DNA of 64,000 bases from the NCBI GenBank assembly GCA_964357615.1, contig CAYHMC010000006.1, positions 7,144-71,143 on the forward strand. The letters run 5' to 3'. The stretch comes from an uncultured Candidatus Saccharibacteria bacterium (lineage in GTDB: Bacteria; Patescibacteriota; Minisyncoccia; UBA6257; JACOXY01). The notes below the pieces were generated by a model, which saw only the letters and a program-made list of their open reading frames with translations, was not told the origin of the DNA and did not search any database. Shown piece by piece: positions 5,192-46,732 of the stretch (position 1 is its first letter; each line of letters starts with the position of its first letter). The position numbers and the translations under genes were made by a program.

Positions 5192-7426
5192 ATGAAACTA
5201 TCCGGTTCACAAAGTGAATATATTCTATATTTAGCCTCTTTTCCTCCTAGAGAATGTGGTATTGCAACATTTACTCAAGATTTAAGCGTTGCTTTTGATA
5301 AAAAATTTAACCCAGCTATAAAGTCTCGAATAGCGGCACTAAACGACGAACGACACACCATTTATAACTATGGAAATAAGGTTGTAGATCAAATTGTAGC
5401 CACAGAACTGCATGAATATGTAAAGCTAGCTAAAAGAATTAATTCTAGAGACGATATTAAGGTTATAAATATTCAACATGAATTCGGGCTTTTTGGTGGC
5501 GAGTGGGGTGACTACATAATCCCCTTTCTACAAGCGCTCGAAAAACCAGTCGTAATAACTTTTCACTCTGTAATTTCGGAACCAGACGACCATCTAAGGA
5601 ATGTTGTGCGAGCTATTGCAGAACATTCAATGTCTTTAGTTGTGATGAACAAACTTTCAGAGAAAACATTAATTACCGATTACAAAATATCGAAACAAAA
5701 AATCATGGTTATCCCTCATGGAATTCCATCAACAGCATTTGAGCCCAGTGAAATTTCAAAAGAAAAACTTGGGCTATCTGGCAATACAGTGCTCTCAACA
5801 TTTGGAATGTTAAGCCCCAACAAGGGAATCGAATATGCTATTCGCGCGCTTCCAGAAGTTATAAAACAATTTCCAAATGTGGTCTATTTAGTGCTCGGCG
5901 AAACACATCCTCTAATTAGAAAATCAAACGGAGAAGAATATAGAAATTTTTTAATAAAAGAAGTTGGTCGTCTTGGTCTCGACAAACATGTAAAGTTTTA
6001 TAATAAATACCTAACTCTCGATGAAATAGTTTCATTTTTGAAGGCAACAGATATTTATATTGGACCATCACTAGACATGCGCCAGTCTGTTTCTGGAACT
6101 CTTTCTTATGCGCTGGGGTGTGGTAGACCAGTAATATCAACCGAGTCAGAATATGCAAAATATTTAATTGATAGCACTGTAGGTCTTTTAGTAAAACCAA
6201 AAAACGATAGAGCTCTAAGAGATGCGATACTTCAAATGCTTCAGGACCCAAAATGGATGAAAAGTCTAAGCGCACAAGCATATGAAAAATCTCGCCCTAT
6301 GACATGGCCAAATGTAGCAGCAGCACATATGAATTTATATAAGAAATTTACTGAATTTGGTGAAGAAGAAAAGAAGCTCCCCGAACTAAAACTAGATCAT
6401 CTAAAGAGACTGACTGATAAATTCGGCATTTTGCATTTTGCTAAATACAGCACTCCTGAAACTAGGTATGGTTACAATCTCGACGACAATGCTAGGGCCT
6501 TAATTGTCGCAACACAAAGTTACGCACGAAATCACACGGTTGAAATGCTAGATTATATCAAAATCTACTTAAGCTATTTTGAATTTGTAATGCGTTCTGA
6601 TGGAACTTTTGCAAATATTGTTTCTTCTAAGTTAGTAAGAGACAAAACGCGAGACGAAGATGTCCAAGGCAGAGCATTTTGGGCACTTGGATATGTGGCT
6701 GCACAAAACTCTCTTCCAAAGGAAGTTGTTGATAAAGCAACGATTCTACTTAAGAAGGGACTGCGCAATGTGAGGGGTCTTAAATCCCCTCGGGCCATAG
6801 CCTTTACAATGATTGGCCTTTATTACTTCATAAAAAGCAATCCACAAAAATCTTTAATGCAAATTTTTACTAAATTTGCAGACTCTCTCACCGCTTTATA
6901 TAAAGAAAATTCGGATGCCGATTGGCAATGGTTTGAACCGCACCTTACATACTCAAACGCCGCTCTCCCCGAAGCGCTATTTTATGCTTATGAGTTAGTT
7001 AAAGATAAAAAATATTTAAATGTCGCTGAAGAATCTATCGCTTTTCTTAAAGGAATAACTTTTCTAAAAAAGCATTACTCTCCTATCGGCCAAAAAGGAT
7101 GGTTCTTCAGAGACAAGGCTAGGGCATTTTTTGATCAACAGCCAGAAGATACCGCACACATGGTTCAAGCCAAACTCACAGCTTATAATGTAACTGGCAA
7201 GTCAGAGCACTTTGAAGATGCGTACCGTGCATTTCAATGGTTTCTTGGCAAAAACTTTTTAAATCAAGTTATTTACGATGAGGGAACGGGTGGGTGTCAC
7301 GATGGATTAGGACAAGATGGAGTCAATTTGAACCAAGGCTCAGAATCTACAATATCTTACCTCCTAGCAAGATTGGCATTTGAAAATATAAACAAACCTC
7401 AAACCGACCTAGTACAAGAAGCGTAA
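5192..7426 (+). CDS. glycosyltransferase family 4 (GT-B, group 1) fused to a C-terminal (alpha/alpha)6-barrel-like domain
   Basis: 744 aa. N-terminus YILYLASFPPRECGIATFTQDL plus a GT4-type C-terminal lobe (about aa 1-390). The following roughly 350 aa (FGILHFAKYSTPETRYGYNLDDNARALI...) look like a glycosidase/epimerase-type alpha-barrel. Confidence 0.65.
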   Translation: MKLSGSQSEYILYLASFPPRECGIATFTQDLSVAFDKKFNPAIKSRIAALNDERHTIYNYGNKVVDQIVATELHEYVKLAKRINSRDDIKVINIQHEFGLFGGEWGDYIIPFLQALEKPVVITFHSVISEPDDHLRNVVRAIAEHSMSLVVMNKLSEKTLITDYKISKQKIMVIPHGIPSTAFEPSEISKEKLGLSGNTVLSTFGMLSPNKGIEYAIRALPEVIKQFPNVVYLVLGETHPLIRKSNGEEYRNFLIKEVGRLGLDKHVKFYNKYLTLDEIVSFLKATDIYIGPSLDMRQSVSGTLSYALGCGRPVISTESEYAKYLIDSTVGLLVKPKNDRALRDAILQMLQDPKWMKSLSAQAYEKSRPMTWPNVAAAHMNLYKKFTEFGEEEKKLPELKLDHLKRLTDKFGILHFAKYSTPETRYGYNLDDNARALIVATQSYARNHTVEMLDYIKIYLSYFEFVMRSDGTFANIVSSKLVRDKTRDEDVQGRAFWALGYVAAQNSLPKEVVDKATILLKKGLRNVRGLKSPRAIAFTMIGLYYFIKSNPQKSLMQIFTKFADSLTALYKENSDADWQWFEPHLTYSNAALPEALFYAYELVKDKKYLNVAEESIAFLKGITFLKKHYSPIGQKGWFFRDKARAFFDQQPEDTAHMVQAKLTAYNVTGKSEHFEDAYRAFQWFLGKNFLNQVIYDEGTGGCHDGLGQDGVNLNQGSESTISYLLARLAFENINKPQTDLVQEA

Positions 7427-7661
7427 GGGATGCGGAGATATTTTTTAGACTCATAGGCCTTCGCAAAATGAAATCTCTCTCACTCATTGGGAGAAACTAT
7501 TTCGTAAAACATCGAACTCGACCTCGCTTCGCTTGGGACTCATACAGCGATGTTTTTCTGTTTCTGCCTCTTCGTTCTGAGATTTCTATTTTACTCCGAC
7601 AATATTCCCTAAAAAAATATCTCCTTATCTTTTGGTTGTGGTTGTTGTATAATTAATAGCA

Positions 7662-8825
7662 ATGACAAAAATAATTGATAAAGCATACGAAGAAGCTATA
7701 AAAACATTAGAACATTGCGCAAAACCAGTTGGTTTCTATGCATCAGGATTAAAAGGTGGTTACGAAGCAGTTTGGGCAAGAGATTCAATGATAACATCAC
7801 TCGGAGCTTCATTAGTTAATAAAAAATTTCAAACACCTTTTAAAAAAAGTTTAGAATCGCTTGGCAAAAATCAAGCGTGGCATGGAGCAATTCCAAATGC
7901 AGTTGGTTCTTGGAATGATGAGCGTAAGTCAGATGTAACATTTAACTCAATTGATTCTAGTTTGTGGTTTATTATTGGGCATTTCGTTTACGCAAAAGCA
8001 TATGGCGATAAATCACTACTAAAAAAATACAAAAAAAATATTGACGCCTCGTTGCTTTGGGTTAGATACCAAGATCCAAATAACGACGGCCTTCCAGTTC
8101 AGCAACCAACAATGGATTGGGAAGATATCTTTCCTCACAAATACGGCAGAGTTTTAAACACGCAGGCACTTTATTATGCTTCGCTTAAATTTCTAGGCGA
8201 GAATAAAAAAGCTGAACATTTAAAGAAAATTGTAAACGGAGAAACTCAAAAAACTATTTCACTCTATAGTAATAAGCTTGGTTACTATGTTCCTTGGGTT
8301 TGGAAATATCATGGACCATTGGGTCGAGAAGAAGAGCATTGGTTTGATACCTTGGGAAACTTACTAGCAATAGTAACTGGTCTTGCAACGCCAAATATCT
8401 CAAAAAGTATTTTAAATTACATAGAAAAAAATAAGATAAACAAACCCTACCCCTGTAAAACAATTTGGCCAACATTAAAAAAGGGTGACAAAGAATGGCA
8501 TTGGTATTTTGATTCAGCTGAATGCAAAGACCCATTTCACTATTCAAACGCCGGCATCTGGCCTTTCATTGGTGGCTTTTATATAGCAGCTCTGGTTAAA
8601 GACGGTCAATTTAAAAAAGCAGAGATTGAATTAGAAAAACTAGCTGAGGCAAATAAAAAAGTGCACCCCAAAGAAAAACGAGTTAAGGAATTCGGATTCC
8701 AAGAATGGCTCCATGGTAAAACCGGTGAAGCTAAAGGCGGTTCTTCCGCTTATCAAGCGTGGTCAGCGGGAGCATATATTTACGCTTACAAATGCGTAAA
8801 AAATAAAAAAACTCTATATTTTTAA
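7662..8825 (+). CDS. (alpha/alpha)6-barrel glycoside hydrolase-like protein (GH63/GH100/GDE-like; exact family uncertain)
   Basis: 387 aa. An AVWARDSMITSLGA motif is typical of GH15/63/100/GDE-type barrels. It sits inside the GH130 cluster. Confidence 0.5.
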   Translation: MTKIIDKAYEEAIKTLEHCAKPVGFYASGLKGGYEAVWARDSMITSLGASLVNKKFQTPFKKSLESLGKNQAWHGAIPNAVGSWNDERKSDVTFNSIDSSLWFIIGHFVYAKAYGDKSLLKKYKKNIDASLLWVRYQDPNNDGLPVQQPTMDWEDIFPHKYGRVLNTQALYYASLKFLGENKKAEHLKKIVNGETQKTISLYSNKLGYYVPWVWKYHGPLGREEEHWFDTLGNLLAIVTGLATPNISKSILNYIEKNKINKPYPCKTIWPTLKKGDKEWHWYFDSAECKDPFHYSNAGIWPFIGGFYIAALVKDGQFKKAEIELEKLAEANKKVHPKEKRVKEFGFQEWLHGKTGEAKGGSSAYQAWSAGAYIYAYKCVKNKKTLYF

Positions 8826-8832
8826 CATAAAC

Positions 8833-9876
8833 ATGTTTGCTCGCTCAAATAGTAATCCGATTTTAAAACCTAATACAAAAAATGAGTGGGAAAGTTTTAA
8901 AGTCTATAACCCAGGTGCATTCTACGAAGATGGCGTTTACCATCTTTTTTATCGTGCCATGGGCAAAAATTGGATATCATCTATTGGACATGCCGTATCT
9001 GGTGATGGTGAAAATTTTGAACGCTCTAAGAGTCCGCTTCTCGCTTCTCCTCATAATTCCTACAGCATAGAAGATCCACGGGTAACAAAAATAAAGGATA
9101 AATATTTTTTAACGTTTACTCGCTACGATAAACTAAATGTTACCTTAAATCTTGCAACATCTACAGATTTAAAAAATTGGAATGTACATGGCGAAATGAT
9201 TCCAAGTTGGGATTTTAAAAAAGCCAGTGGGTTTTTGGTTGACTGGGATCCAGCCCAAGTTGAAGCAGAAAAAAATCTGGAAGCTAGTCACAAATGGTGC
9301 AAGGCCGGTGGAATTTTTGGAGAAATAATTGGTGACAAATATTGGATGCTCTTCGGAGATAGGCATATTTGGTTAGCAAATTCTGATGATGGAATAACTT
9401 GGAATCCAATATGGGAACCATTTATCAAGGCGCGAGGCAAAAACTATTTTGACGAAGAACATATAGAAATGGGTCCACCACCTATAAAAACTTCAAAGGG
9501 GTGGCTAGTTTTATATCATGGAGTAAATGATAAAATTGTTTACCGTCTTGGATTTATGCTTTTGGATTTAAATGATCCAACAAAAATACTTTATCGATCT
9601 AAGGATGCAATCTTTGAACCTCAAGAGTCATACGAGCTAAAAGGAATTGTGGATATTTTACCAGGTGGCTCTAAAGCAATGGAGAAAATGAATACGGAAG
9701 AGCTTGCAGAGTTTATTCAAAGATACGAAGAGAAAGACAAAATGCCTCGAGTAGCTTTTGTAAATGGTGCAGTTTTGGTTGGAGACACTTTGCGTATTTA
9801 TTACGGAGCAAGCGATTCGGTAATTTGCACTGCAACGGCAAATATAAGTGCTATTTTAAATCTTACACAAAGTTAA
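8833..9876 (+). CDS. glycoside hydrolase family 130 protein (second copy)
   Basis: NPILKPNTKNEWESFKVYNPGAFYEDGVYHLFYRAMG...IEDPRVTKIKDKYFLTFTRYD is a GH130 signature. It is a paralog of the 4003-5049 gene. Confidence 0.75.
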   Translation: MFARSNSNPILKPNTKNEWESFKVYNPGAFYEDGVYHLFYRAMGKNWISSIGHAVSGDGENFERSKSPLLASPHNSYSIEDPRVTKIKDKYFLTFTRYDKLNVTLNLATSTDLKNWNVHGEMIPSWDFKKASGFLVDWDPAQVEAEKNLEASHKWCKAGGIFGEIIGDKYWMLFGDRHIWLANSDDGITWNPIWEPFIKARGKNYFDEEHIEMGPPPIKTSKGWLVLYHGVNDKIVYRLGFMLLDLNDPTKILYRSKDAIFEPQESYELKGIVDILPGGSKAMEKMNTEELAEFIQRYEEKDKMPRVAFVNGAVLVGDTLRIYYGASDSVICTATANISAILNLTQS

Positions 9877-9889
9877 AACAAAAAAGACC

Positions 9890-10834
9890 CTATTTTTCTA
9901 AAAGTTTTAATTTAATCTTATAAGCATTGCCGTGATGCAACATTCCCAAGTAAGAATTAGCTGCTTGAATATTTTCATTTCCTTTCATTCTTTTAAACAT
10001 TCTTCTTTTAGTAGCCGTGCGCAATACGCGATGACTAGGAAAGTGCACCCAACCTAAAAAATCAAGACCAGAAGCAAGAGTTTTCATATAAAGTTTTTGG
10101 GGATGTAATTCTAAGCCCAATCTATAATATAAAAAGTTTTTTATTGGTTCTATTTGATTTTCTAACCATTCCCTATTTTCCGACAAAATCACGAAGTCAT
10201 CTGCATAACGAATATAATAATTAGCTTTAAGCCTGTGCTTAACAAATTGGTCAAATTCATTCATATAGATATTCACAAAAAGCTGAGATGTTAAGTTGCC
10301 AAGCGGCAGACCAACTCCCGATCTAGTGAAAAAACTATCAATTATATTTTGAAGAAGCCTAAGTAAATCTTTGTCCTCAATTCTTGCGCACAAAATATCC
10401 ATCAAAACTTGGTGGTGAATATTAGCAAAGAATTTTTTTATATCACATTTTAGAATGAAGCAGGTTCGAGTATTGTTTTTACTAACTTTGTAGCCAAAAC
10501 TCTTAAACCTATCTAATGCTTTATGAGTTCCCTTATTTATTCTGCATGAATAAGAATCTGAAATAAAGGTTTTATCAAAAAATGGATATAGTTTTCTATA
10601 AATTGCGTGATGCAAAAGTCTGTCCCTAACAGAGGCTTTGTGTATATTTCTTGGTTTTGGATCAGAGATATTAAAAGCTTTATAATTTCCGTGACTGTAG
10701 GTTTTATTTAAAAGCTCCTCATACAGCAATAGAATATTGTCCATGAATTTTAAAGAAAATTCTTGAACATCTTTTCTATTATGCTTACCCTTTACAAATT
10801 CTCTCCAAGCTTCTAATATATTTTCCACTCCCAA
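9890..10834 (-). CDS. diversity-generating retroelement (DGR) reverse transcriptase
   Basis: 314 aa with RT motifs and YADD (IRYADDFVIL). Motif 4 reads LPLGNLTSQLFVNIY, the DGR-specific [I/L]GxxxSQ form. The compact size is typical of DGR RTs, and it lies next to a TR/VR pair. Confidence 0.85.
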   Translation of the reverse strand: MGVENILEAWREFVKGKHNRKDVQEFSLKFMDNILLLYEELLNKTYSHGNYKAFNISDPKPRNIHKASVRDRLLHHAIYRKLYPFFDKTFISDSYSCRINKGTHKALDRFKSFGYKVSKNNTRTCFILKCDIKKFFANIHHQVLMDILCARIEDKDLLRLLQNIIDSFFTRSGVGLPLGNLTSQLFVNIYMNEFDQFVKHRLKANYYIRYADDFVILSENREWLENQIEPIKNFLYYRLGLELHPQKLYMKTLASGLDFLGWVHFPSHRVLRTATKRRMFKRMKGNENIQAANSYLGMLHHGNAYKIKLKLLEK

Positions 10835-10873
10835 AACTTCTTCGAAATTTTAAGTAAACATAATTTTCATTAT

Positions 10874-10902
10874 AAAAAAAAAACTTTTAATCCCCCCCCC
10901 CC
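10874..10902. repeat. homopolymeric A10 and C11 tracts in the divergent RT/Avd intergenic region
   Basis: aaaaaaaaaa (10874-10883) and ccccccccccc (10892-10902), located between the RT start (10834, minus) and the Avd start (10931, plus). Confidence 0.9.
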
Positions 10903-10930
10903 ACGGAATAATATTTCAATTATTCAACAC

Positions 10931-11251
10931 TTGATACGTGCATATAAACTTTGGCACGGATTCTTGCCTCATATCCCAAAAGACGCACGCTACACTGTTG
11001 GCGCCAAAGTAGATTCTGCTTTTATTGAAACAGTTGAAGCGGTGTTCCGTGCAAGTATCACAGCTAAAGATAAAAAAATTGCCTACATCGAAGAAGCTTC
11101 GATAAAATTGGATATAGTTAAATTTTTCCTACAGATTATCTGGGAAATCAAAGCATTGGATACTAAAAAATATGCTCTTATCTCTGCAGAACTAAATGAG
11201 ATAGGCAGAATGATTGGCGGCTGGCTAAGACAAGCTATGAGCCGAAACTAA
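10931..11251 (+). CDS. Avd-like accessory variability determinant (four-helix-bundle protein, TIGR02436-like), TTG start
   Basis: 106 aa. The pattern ...IPKDARYTVGAKVDSAFIETVEAV...KIAYIEEASIKLDIVKFFLQIIWEIKAL...ISAELNEIGRMIGGWL matches the four-helix-bundle / Avd family. It is adjacent to the RT and TR. Confidence 0.65.
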   Translation: MIRAYKLWHGFLPHIPKDARYTVGAKVDSAFIETVEAVFRASITAKDKKIAYIEEASIKLDIVKFFLQIIWEIKALDTKKYALISAELNEIGRMIGGWLRQAMSRN

Positions 11252-11298
11252 CCACCAAACATTTTCTCCCTACTATTTTATAAAACATTTATTGCCAG

Positions 11299-11427
11299 TT
11301 GCCGGAAACTGCCACTCGACCGTTCGAGTTCTGATCATTGTCGAGCCAGTTCCAGTTGAGATACCAACGCTTGCCATCCTGATTGAGGTACGGGACGTTC
11401 CGGTTGCCGTTCTCGTTCACCACGATT
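11299..11427 (-). repeat. DGR template repeat (TR), about 129 bp, coding orientation on minus strand
   Basis: About 87% identical to 11768-11896. All 17 mismatches are T on the plus strand here (A on the minus strand). The minus-strand translation is Asn-rich (VVNENGNRNVPYLNQDGKRWYLNWNWLDNDQNSNGRVAVSG) with AAC codons. Confidence 0.85.
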
Positions 11428-11683
11428 GTACGAAAAATCACCCACGTCACCACCCCTTGAATTATCTTGAGGTTGTATATTATTCGGAATCTATAATTCT
11501 CTGATTTCTCGCACCAAGTAGCAAAAATGTGTAGCGTATAGATACAACTCTCTGGCAGAAAAATTTTCCGCTGCCATTCTCGTTTGTATTATCGCAGAGT
11601 TCAACCGCGTACAACCTTAGCCGTACGCGCAACGTCTACTATCTATATTTAAAATATCATAAGTTTAATAAATAAAAAAATTA

Positions 11684-11701
11684 CCCTTACTTTCGTAAGG
11701 G
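11684..11701 (-). terminator. rho-independent terminator downstream of DGR target gene (CCCTTAC-TTTC-GTAAGGG plus T-run on minus strand)
   Basis: A 7-bp perfect stem with a 4-nt loop is followed on the minus strand by TTTTTTT (A-run 11674-11680 on plus). It lies about 60 bp after the target stop. Confidence 0.6.
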
Positions 11702-11763
11702 ATTTCGGTCCAAGGGACCAAGGGACAAGAAGTCCCCAGGTCCCAAGGATCCGAATGCCAATG

Positions 11764-12378
11764 CTACTTGCCGGAAACTGCCACCCGACCGTCCGAGCGC
11801 TGACCATGGCCGAGCCAGTCCCAGTGGAGATACCAACGCTTGCCACCCTGATCGAGGTACGGGACGTCCCGGTCGCCGTTCTCGCGCACCACGACCAAGC
11901 CCGGAAAATCGATGTAGACTTTTCCGAGAAGAGCCATGAACTCGGGGAACTCGTCTTGATGGTCGACCAGCCAGACTGCTTGCTGATAACCGAGAGTTGG
12001 CAAAGAGATGATTCTTCGCTCGTATTCGACGCCACCGACCGAACCTTCGTCAGGCCGGAGAACCGTTCCGAGGGATAGCGTTACGGCTTCCGTCGGCGAG
12101 TTGTCGCGCTCGATGGATTTGATCCACGAGAACTTCGCTTGAATCTCTGCGATAGTCGGACGTGGAAGTGCGGGAATCTGAATCGCGACGTCCTCCATTT
12201 TCCGGAAGAAGCCTGCTGCAGCGATGAGCTTCGCGACGAACTCGTCGGTGAGCAACTTCAACGTATCCTCCGAAAGGTCGAGAACTGCTTCTTCTGATCG
12301 ACTGACCTTCAGTCCGCCGATGATGCGCGTTGTGATGGTCGTGAGAAACCCGAATGCCGAACCGATTTGTGACTTCAT
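11764..12378 (-). CDS. DGR target (variable) protein, 204 aa, GC-rich, VR-encoded C-terminus
   Basis: The minus-strand ORF ends 4 nt beyond the VR. Its GC content (mid-50s percent) is far above the flanking genes (about 33%). The C-terminal WYL.W.WL ligand-binding-like segment is diversified. Confidence 0.75.
   Translation of the reverse strand: MKSQIGSAFGFLTTITTRIIGGLKVSRSEEAVLDLSEDTLKLLTDEFVAKLIAAAGFFRKMEDVAIQIPALPRPTIAEIQAKFSWIKSIERDNSPTEAVTLSLGTVLRPDEGSVGGVEYERRIISLPTLGYQQAVWLVDHQDEFPEFMALLGKVYIDFPGLVVVRENGDRDVPYLDQGGKRWYLHWDWLGHGQRSDGRVAVSGK
11768..11896 (-). repeat. DGR variable repeat (VR) at 3' end of target gene
   Basis: Partner of the TR. It encodes VVRENGDRDVPYLDQGGKRWYLHWDWLGHGQRSDGRVAVSG at the target protein's C-terminus. 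The substitutions are AAC/AAT/GAT to CGC/GAC/GGT/CAC/CAT/GGC. Confidence 0.85.
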
Positions 12379-12651
12379 TGTACTACTCCTTTTTCCATGG
12401 TTTACCCCTCATTCTCGCACCATGCGAAAACCCCAGGCTCACCATTGTACTGCTTCTATTATACCATATTTAACCTATCTTTGCAATACCACACAAAACC
12501 TATAATTTATAACGCTTATATCTAAGCAGAATGTCGCGAAGGTCAAAAAGCTTGGTATCCGAAGGATTTTTTGACCGAGCGTCAAATTCCAACTTTTCGC
12601 AGGAAAAAGTTGGAATGTTTCTGCGTGATATAAGTGATATAAATTATCCCC

Positions 12652-46392: not shown

Positions 46393-46732
46393 CTACCACC
46401 CAACCTGGAACTCGGGAAACGCCACTTGAAGCATCTTGGCAGTCTGCTCTCGGTCCGGCTCCATTCGGTAATCAGTGCTCCTATCCCAAATGCGGATTGC
46501 CTTCACCGCGGGATTAATCGCGATTCTACCCCCCCCCAATACATCGAGCTCTCAGACCTTTCGGCTGAACCTCTTCACAAAGTTTCTCGAGAATATCTCG
46601 GTGATATTCGCAATCCTTATTGGCACGGATCACTACCTTTGATGCGCCGATTCCGTCGGTGACTTCGGCGACGATGAACTTATAGCCACCAGTGGAATCG
46701 ATAACTACTTCCTGTAGGGTTTCAAGATTCAT
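46393..46732 (-). pseudogene. poly-G interrupted (candidate phase-variable) paralog of the 43116-43457 gene; currently truncated after CIGGG by a G9 tract
   Basis: The 46526-46732 ORF ends ...CIGGG-stop at a nine-G run (C9 on plus, 46539-46547). With 8 or 11 G the frame continues as RIAINPAVKAIRIWDRSTDYRMEPDREQTAKMLQVAFPEFQVGW-stop (to 46393), which aligns with the intact paralog. Confidence 0.65.

Follow-up and report, generated by a model that had tools for sequence, protein, structure and literature searches.

A slippage-prone repeat between divergent avd and reverse transcriptase genes as a candidate stochastic switch of Patescibacteria diversity-generating retroelements

The stretch of 64,000 nt analysed here (hereafter the window), from contig CAYHMC010000006.1 of an uncultured Candidatus Saccharibacteria bacterium, carries a diversity-generating retroelement (DGR) in which the genes for the reverse transcriptase (RT) and for the accessory protein Avd point away from each other, and the short region between their start codons holds a run of eleven C residues on the plus strand, that is, of eleven G residues in the sense of the RT gene. 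This C11/G11 tract is read here as a slippage-prone repeat in the common control region of avd and RT and probably as a stochastic switch of DGR activity, the balance tipping slightly towards the whole of this chain being correct. With respect to the larger group of related elements, the best reading is that selection has kept a slippage-prone repeat between the avd and RT start codons of a large DGR clade of the Patescibacteria (candidate phyla radiation, CPR), because such repeats occur clade-wide, are pure, have been replaced in type several times, have lengths within the slipping range and are polymorphic while their flanks stay fixed.

The DGR cassette and its homopolymers

The locus is a real DGR, comprising an RT of the RVT_1 family, an Avd protein, a pair of template repeat (TR) and variable repeat (VR) with adenine-biased differences, and a VR located at the 3′ end of the target gene. 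The features concerned are the following, in window coordinates:

9890-10834, minus strand: DGR reverse transcriptase open reading frame (ORF; mechanical call), matching RVT_1 with E 1e-22 and 65-72% identical to Patescibacteria RTs
10868-10870, minus strand: ancestral RT start codon ATG (MKIMFT...), placed by the N-termini of homologues, by protein P0161 (MKIKFTKNFEEIVGVEN) and by the DNA of contig L186
10874-10883, minus strand: A10 (plus strand) or T10 (RT-sense) run within the RT leader, separated by 3 nt from the ancestral ATG
10892-10902, minus strand: simple-sequence repeat, C11 in the avd sense and G11 in the RT sense, the local copy of the clade-wide avd/RT repeat
10931-11251, plus strand: avd accessory gene (bAvd PF22296, E 1e-14), divergent from RT
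11296-11425, minus strand: TR, a 130-nt direct repeat with the VR, 87% identical
11764-12378, minus strand: DGR target gene, 204 aa, without a Pfam match
11765-11894, minus strand: VR, 3′-terminal part of the target ORF, coding for the C-terminus of the protein

On the RT-sense strand the cassette thus consists of the target gene with the VR, the TR, avd, the G/C tract and RT, with avd being inverted relative to target, TR and RT. Mismatches between TR and VR fall on TR adenines in 18 out of 22 cases (minus-strand reading), and the VR is identical in both available assemblies of the window species. The RT belongs with thousands of Patescibacteria RTs that sit in the same type of cassette and share 65-72% of its residues; in the public record its product (P0001) starts at the GTG at 10828 and comprises 312 aa. 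For avd the called start is the TTG at 10931, with an in-frame ATT at 10913 as an alternative, and no canonical start codon is present further upstream, through the C tract, in the avd reading frame of the window. The tract is separated by 10-28 nt from the avd start and by 21 nt from the ancestral RT ATG, and its distance to the VR is about 900 nt. The original prediction had given the gap between the two genes as 96 bp, which is correct for the mechanically called starts, whereas the ancestral RT ATG at 10870-10868 makes the real gap about 60 bp. An E-value search of positions 9800-12500 against Rfam, on both strands, yielded no known structured RNA at E ≤1.

As already described in the original prediction, the A10 run (10874-10883), an 8-nt spacer (CTTTTAAT) and the C11 run (10892-10902) follow each other on the plus strand, and these two runs are the longest homopolymers of the window. 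After C11, the next G/C run is a C9 at 46529-46537, all remaining ones being no longer than 6 nt. The G + C content, previously taken to be about 33% for the genome, was measured at 36.2% in the window. On base composition alone, assuming independent and identically distributed positions, the number of C runs of at least 11 nt expected in 64 kb is 0.0014 and that of A runs of at least 10 nt is 0.45; therefore, C11 is far beyond chance, as had been supposed for an 11-nt G/C homopolymer, and A10 by itself is unremarkable. Nor is the A10/T10 run conserved: relatives have T5-6 at that place, a second haplotype from the same aquifer (see below) is without the run, and A10 falls inside the sole segment by which the two haplotypes differ. 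It looks like a local, non-conserved expansion of the T-rich RT leader. Of the two tracts that had been proposed as slippage elements, the C tract retains this role, being conserved and polymorphic in length in relatives, whereas this role is not supported for the A tract, which is not conserved.

Conservation of the repeat among related cassettes

A scan with the RT alignment over one-genome-per-species contigs and metagenome contigs yielded 160 loci; the loci with upstream DNA, 143 with the window included, were used for the counts of layout and repeat. In all 143, avd is divergent from RT and the layout target/VR, TR, inverted avd, RT is the same. In 112 of these loci, the RT strand of the gap between avd and RT bears a poly-G of 7 nt or more without interruption, with lengths of 7 nt in 9 loci, 8 nt in 16, 9 nt in 28, 10 nt in 34, 11 nt in 21, 12 nt in 2, and 13 and 14 nt in one locus each. 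At 19 loci another simple repeat resides at the same site, namely (GA)n in 14, (GT)n in two, and (CT)n, (TGGC)6 and (TTCG)9 in one each, so that overall a simple-sequence repeat is found in 131 of the 143 loci (about 92%). No repeat is present in the other 12, several of which have degenerate G-rich remnants and one of which is a scaffold gap. Homologous loci of the same architecture thus do not lack the tract, a possibility that the original prediction had raised against itself.

Outside the gap, the 830,573 nt of the same loci contain only 8 G/C runs that reach 7 nt, the density of such runs being about 900-fold lower in the flanks than at the avd-RT site. The loci are deeply diverged, with RT nucleotide identities of at most 80%, and no near-identical pair exists among the 160 fetched loci, none reaching 85% nucleotide identity and the closest pair having 80%. 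While the non-coding flanks cannot be aligned, the tract is still pure, which requires either selection or a constant homogenisation by slippage. In addition, the type of repeat has been replaced several times, and the replacements include tetranucleotide repeats that have no obvious structural property.

Controls were obtained by running the same RT alignment against the viral contigs of IMG/VR. None of 60 distant RT loci (23-34% identity) has a G/C run reaching 7 nt in the 200 nt that precede RT. A sister clade with RTs that are 45-50% identical (L204, L206-L209, L211-L214, L218) has the same divergent avd-RT layout and no repeat; therefore, the repeat is, as judged by this comparison, a lineage-specific insertion between head-to-head genes that does not follow from the layout as such. 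In the sister clade the two start codons are only 10-30 nt apart, and hence the promoter of each gene must there lie within the other gene.

The cassettes of the clade look active since mismatches between TR and VR concentrate at TR adenines, at least 75% of the mismatches being located there in 99 of 104 related loci. Next to the 3′ end of avd the TR was found in 101 of the 104 testable loci (L002-L161), whose near-invariant order is target/VR, a spacer of about 400-500 nt, TR, avd on the opposite strand, repeat and RT. In such an arrangement the TR transcript would run antisense into avd, and the region usually taken by the TR-RT spacer RNA is occupied by antisense avd.

The (GA)n loci constitute a sub-clade of their own (L005, L009, L021, L068, L071, L076, L081, L097, L112, L128, L129, L144, L153, L158), most members of which are without a canonical RT or avd start on the gene's own side of the repeat. 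No stop codon interrupts either frame within the repeat, which would be read as (Glu-Arg)n on one strand and as (Ser-Leu)n on the opposite one, and in 7 of the 14 loci an in-frame RT ATG lies inside the opposite-strand avd. In this sub-clade the repeat may accordingly be part of both frames on opposite strands, and both proteins may be switched by frameshift.

Variation of tract length and behaviour in assemblies

Differences in tract length were detected via the members of RT clusters at 90% identity, as a comparison of identical RTs is circular in the case of P0027, where the called ORF runs through the tract. The P0027/P0121 lineage comprises 16 contigs from different samples with the same RT protein and an identical sequence over 400 nt upstream, in which the tract is G7 in 4 contigs, G8 in 11 and G9 in one; besides the tract, a single-nucleotide polymorphism in one contig is the sole difference over these 400 nt. 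ORFs of this lineage that extend through the tract have CGGGN, CGGGGN, AGGGN or AGGN in front of an identical RT, implying G8, G11, G9 and G6, respectively. In a second lineage G7 was found in the DNA and G10 is implied by the proteins (RGGGI vs. RGGI), and in a third the RT N-termini WGGGL and WGGGGF likewise imply a difference in tract length. The comparison of tract lengths among related genomes that the original prediction had proposed has thus shown that, in at least one related lineage, sequences that are the same in all else differ in their tract (G7/G8/G9). Among contigs encoding exactly the same RT no variation in length was seen (P0043, G10 in six contigs; P0082, G8 in three; P0138, G9 in two), and both of the two assemblies of the window species have C11.

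Of the P0027/P0121 lineage it may be added that all 16 contigs (L168-L177, L187-L192) have an avd gene interrupted by a frameshift, which is located at a T7 run some 250 nt upstream of RT. A T8 would restore the reading frame of Avd (...LKFFFQIVWEIKAL...), which makes this gene either a pseudogene or the site of a second homopolymer-dependent step.

The repeat also leaves its traces in assemblies. At least 10 contigs start inside the repeat or no more than 25 nt away from it (contigs ending in or beside the repeat are L024, L053, L061, L101, L102, L108, L111, L123, L124, L136 and L210), and runs of N adjoin it in three scaffolds (L041, L047, L075). In one assembly (Logan contig, L179) C27 takes the place of G11, and a G17 at a contig end is an artefact. 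Gene callers, in turn, extend RT ORFs through the poly-G as poly-Gly and avd ORFs through the poly-C as poly-Pro. With contigs broken and ORFs misjudged at this site, such cassettes will be systematically missed or wrongly annotated in surveys of CPR DGRs.

Putative expression signals around the repeat

On the RT side, a candidate promoter element directly follows the tract:

10884-10889, minus strand: putative RT -10 box TAAAAG (consensus TA[G/A]AA[T/G]), 2 nt after the G tract and assigned on consensus evidence only

The window reads G11-AT-TAAAAG at this place, and the motif is common to its nearest relatives, e.g., L135. Across the loci, a TAnnnT hexamer exactly adjoins the repeat on the RT side in 25%, in comparison to about 3% per position in the background, and the dinucleotide TA is found within 0-3 nt of the repeat in 97 of 129 loci as opposed to 34-63 loci for other 4-nt windows. 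The RT ATG comes after the repeat in 84 of the 129 loci, and the distance between the two ranges from 9 to 22 nt with 13 nt being the commonest value. At a distance of 13 nt, 7 nt remain between the hexamer and the ATG, as would be expected for an mRNA with no leader or a very short one. On the other side, the conserved N-terminus of Avd, (I/L)LPVLQK, starts 4-30 nt after the repeat; its first Leu is often encoded by TTG, without a Shine-Dalgarno sequence, and in many loci this TTG is 4-9 nt away from the repeat. No terminator-like hairpin was found in a scan of positions 10700-11100.

Translation of the repeat itself was considered as well. There is no bias of the poly-G towards one reading frame, the numbers of loci by length modulo 3 being 33, 31 and 23; a conserved translated poly-G was rejected because of this uniform distribution. 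In line with this, translation through the repeat from starts on its far side is in frame in about one third of the poly-G loci, as predicted by chance. An intragenic switch in the window was rejected too, there being no avd start upstream of the tract and a stop in the RT frame between the tract and the conserved N-terminus.

A possible mode of action

Slipped-strand mispairing at replication would add or remove repeat units and thereby alter the geometry of the shared control region. The repeat appears to be placed directly upstream of a -10-like TA(G/A)AA(T/G) box, with the RT start 13-21 nt behind the repeat and the RT leader being very short or absent. Since the repeat adjoins this box on one side and precedes the avd start on the other, changes in its length should alter both the spacing of the RT promoter and the 5′ leader of avd. 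Avd and RT together form the complex that synthesises cDNA. As mutagenic cDNA is made by both proteins jointly, switching either gene would gate retrohoming, and the outcome might be a heritable, reversible and stochastic ON/OFF or graded control of mutagenic retrohoming in subpopulations. A stochastic ON/OFF control of DGR activity had been part of the original prediction; the location of the repeat in the region shared by avd and RT is in agreement with it, whereas the ON/OFF behaviour is what we infer from this location and the promoters are assigned by consensus motifs only.

Whether a whole clade of CPR DGRs has a built-in hypermutable repeat by which the retroelement is stochastically gated is, in our estimation, a proposition with an even chance of being right. 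If it is true, a minority of cells in each population would be rewriting the target protein while the majority would keep a fixed variant, and the repeat would represent a second-order evolvability device, i.e., a contingency switch placed over a targeted hypermutator. CPR bacteria hold a very large share of the known cellular DGRs and have few transcription factors. A slippage-prone repeat in the only control region that the genes of both cDNA-making proteins have in common provides a concrete hypothesis for how DGRs might be controlled.

The RT N-terminus and two haplotypes in the Hainich aquifer

Two further features concern the start of the RT gene and its surroundings:

10850-10852, minus strand: in-frame TAA at RT codon 7; Lys AAA in the near-identical haplotype L186, His in most relatives
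10826-10891, no strand assigned: haplotype-variable segment, the only difference from L001 and L186 (ENA ERZ1292624), with the G/C tract as its left edge

Homologous RTs start with MKI(K/Q)(F/L)xHKFE..., and the corresponding N-terminus in the window reads MKIMFT*NFEE.... As the TAA interrupts this homologous N-terminus at codon 7, the RT of the window may be truncated N-terminally, with a restart at the TTG at 10834 or the GTG at 10828, or may be inactive; an ORF of 312-314 aa remains from these GTG/TTG codons downstream of the stop. Because of the stop at codon 7, the cassette of the window may currently be off or decaying, whatever the length of its tract.

Two haplotypes of this locus coexist in the Hainich aquifer. 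Of two contigs from the Hainich groundwater sample ERZ1292624, L001 matches the window with 100% identity at 10892-12028 (1.1 kb) and L186 with 100% identity at 6890-10825 (3.9 kb), leaving a differing segment of 66 nt whose left edge lies exactly at the G/C tract. In this segment (10826-10891 of the window; positions 1-57 of L001 and 1-114 of L186) the haplotypes differ by six substitutions and by an insert of unrelated DNA, at least 167 nt long, that lie within the segment or take its place. The other haplotype has an intact RT N-terminus and these at least 167 nt of unrelated DNA between tract and RT; by comparison, the window has the leader that is typical of the family but the RT changes K4M, K7stop, I12V and V13L. 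Directly upstream of RT, the insert of the other haplotype contains the 3′ end of an ORF (...AYKDKGLKYQKTFQ*) and a perfect inverted repeat of 11 nt.

Evaluation of alternative explanations

Several observations speak against a selected, slippage-driven switch and have to be set against the evidence presented so far. A generic sigma-70 scan of positions 10700-11100 returned weak AT-rich matches only and no convincing avd promoter, and a -35 element could not be recognised. Longer tracts are not offset by shorter flanks (r = -0.14, p = 0.2), and the combined spacing varies widely; a universal optimal spacing was rejected for lack of such compensation across species, in which no total spacing is conserved. 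In the four populations mentioned above (G10 in six, G8 in three, G9 in two and C11 in two assemblies) all assemblies agree on the length. The lineage with the clearest polymorphism, P0027/P0121, has a frameshifted avd, and its variation may stem from relaxed selection. The RT of the window itself has a premature stop. Finally, G is on the RT strand in 112 of the 112 poly-G loci, and (GA)n exceeds (CT)n by 14:1. Such a strict purine strand bias would not be required by a pure slippage model; common descent can explain it.

The strand orientation, the missing spacing compensation and the constant consensus length in four populations are at the same time arguments for a fixed cis-element that is needed for its physical or compositional properties and does not act as a switch, with the length polymorphism being a tolerated by-product. 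It might insulate back-to-back promoters as a homopurine/homopyrimidine spacer that is rigid or adopts a non-B form (triplex or slipped structure), or it might be a G-poor, C/A-rich and unstructured leader allowing Shine-Dalgarno-independent translation of avd from a weak TTG. In addition, the variants in the avd sense are nearly all C/A-rich and G-poor, namely C(n), (TC)n, (AC)n, (GCCA)n and (CGAA)n, and avd commonly starts at a TTG without a Shine-Dalgarno sequence a few nt after the tract. However, a fixed element would have no need of perfect repetitiveness, yet the tracts are uninterrupted where the flanks have diverged beyond alignment; (TGGC)6 and (TTCG)9 form neither triplexes nor Z-DNA; every tract length is within the range known to slip; and the sister clade works without any such element. 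Altogether, we consider a fixed element unlikely, albeit to be taken seriously as the main rival of the switch. A role of the repeat at the level of RNA appears improbable. The G run could be a Shine-Dalgarno-like element for RT on a transcript reading through from TR to RT, in line with its position 9-22 nt upstream of the RT ATG and with the TR being upstream on the RT-sense strand, where read-through would carry antisense avd, the G run and RT; the divergent avd and RT mRNAs, overlapping at their 5′ ends, could pair through their G and C runs; or transcription could start in the homopolymer and sense nucleotide pools by reiterative transcription, since a -10-like motif on one side could put the start site of the opposite gene inside the run. 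The modal spacing of 13 nt, however, is long for a Shine-Dalgarno sequence, a resemblance to GGAGG cannot be claimed for (GA)n, (GT)n and the tetranucleotide repeats alike, and neither an RNA family or stable structure (Rfam, 9800-12500) nor a terminator-like hairpin was detected.

That the repeat is a by-product at a recombination junction, i.e., at a boundary for the exchange of an RT module against an avd-TR-target module, would be in accordance with the comparison of the window with L001 and L186, where both sides are 100% identical and the divergent segment of 66 nt begins at the tract, as well as with the weak correlation of pairwise RT and Avd identities (r = 0.19). This correlation, however, largely reflects saturation, the RT identities spanning only 0.55-0.70, an 11-nt homopolymer offers poor homology, and the order of the cassette is invariant in 101 of 104 loci. 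Furthermore, such a junction explains neither the repeated replacement of the repeat type nor the polymorphism in length between identical flanks, and we regard it as quite improbable, slightly more so than an RNA-level role. That the tract arose by chance or from errors of sequencing or assembly, such as the poly-G of two-colour chemistry, finally has next to no probability. Assemblers do mis-handle the site, as seen from contig ends, adjoining runs of N and the C27 in one assembly, but the chance expectation is 0.0014, the tract is internal to contigs with coherent DGR genes on both sides, and more than 110 independent assemblies, produced over many years by many studies and on many platforms, have it at the same position and on the same strand; RIFCSP scaffolds and the complete genome CP066687.1 are among them. 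By this recurrence chance and artefact are ruled out. What remains as the best reading is a slippage-prone repeat kept by selection between the start codons of avd and RT.

A second G/C tract in the window

The C9 on the plus strand at 46529-46537 corresponds to a G9 that joins two overlapping, out-of-frame ORFs of 68 and 48 aa on the minus strand (46393-46732), and the original prediction of a second G/C tract within a coding region is thereby borne out, the tract splitting this region. One base fewer or two more in G9 would fuse both ORFs into a protein of about 113 aa. The tract looks like an intragenic homopolymer frameshift, be it a switch, a pseudogene or an error. The hexamer TAGAAT following G9 was considered as a repeat-adjacent -10-like motif and rejected, as it is the stop codon context of that ORF.

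Comparison with known systems

Like the DGRs of Bordetella phage BPP-1 (mtd-avd-TR-brt) and of Bacteroides, the cassette has an RT, Avd, an adenine-specific TR/VR pair and a VR at the C-terminus of the target; unlike in these, avd is inverted and shares a control region with RT. In Bacteroides, DGR activity differs between strains at the transcript level, and the regulatory mechanisms of mutagenic retrohoming have been said to await discovery (bioRxiv 10.1101/2024.11.15.621889). Full-text searches, which did not extend to the main survey of CPR DGRs (Paul et al. 2017, PMC5436926), found no paper connecting DGRs with homopolymers, simple repeats or phase variation, and two large DGR surveys (one of them NAR 2018, PMC5758913) make no mention of these either. 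For the Patescibacteria, no paper on phase variation or a phasome was found in the literature searched.

In the fimbrial switch hifA/hifB of Haemophilus influenzae, a (TA)n repeat in overlapping divergent promoters is reported to lie between the -35 and -10 elements of both promoters, and expression was reportedly measured for each repeat length (attributed to van Ham et al. 1993). In both systems a simple repeat resides in a short region shared by two divergent genes that act together, and slippage would be expected to change the promoter geometry of both genes at once. In contrast to hifA/hifB, there is here a -10-like box on the RT side only, known from sequence alone, the repeat is mostly poly-G and not (TA)n, and the genes that would be controlled constitute a mutagenesis machine instead of a surface structure.

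Homopolymers acting as promoter switches include the poly-C of the Bordetella pertussis fim genes and, in Neisseria meningitidis, the poly-G of porA and the poly-C of opc and fetA. These share with the repeat described here that G/C homopolymers of about 7-15 nt are located in promoters (here a putative one), are polymorphic among close relatives and occur in organisms with small regulatory repertoires. The Bordetella and Neisseria switches are single-gene loci of host interaction in cultured pathogens with demonstrated ON/OFF phenotypes, whereas the repeat between avd and RT belongs to a retroelement cassette and has been kept in uncultured groundwater bacteria throughout a radiation of phylum level. 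Phase variation by homopolymers in B. pertussis has been reviewed (PMC1891110).

Promoter repeats are also found in Mycoplasma, e.g., the (GAA)n of vlhA. Poly-G contingency loci have been described in Campylobacter and Helicobacter (PMC8355987, PMC6321876). With these three genera the bacteria considered here have in common small genomes and G/C tracts as hypermutable switches that would be both intergenic and intragenic (cf. the G9 that splits an ORF in the window). Unlike in these genera, the putative switch is tied to one mobile-like cassette and not scattered over surface genes. The repeat between avd and RT would be a contingency repeat built into a retroelement cassette.

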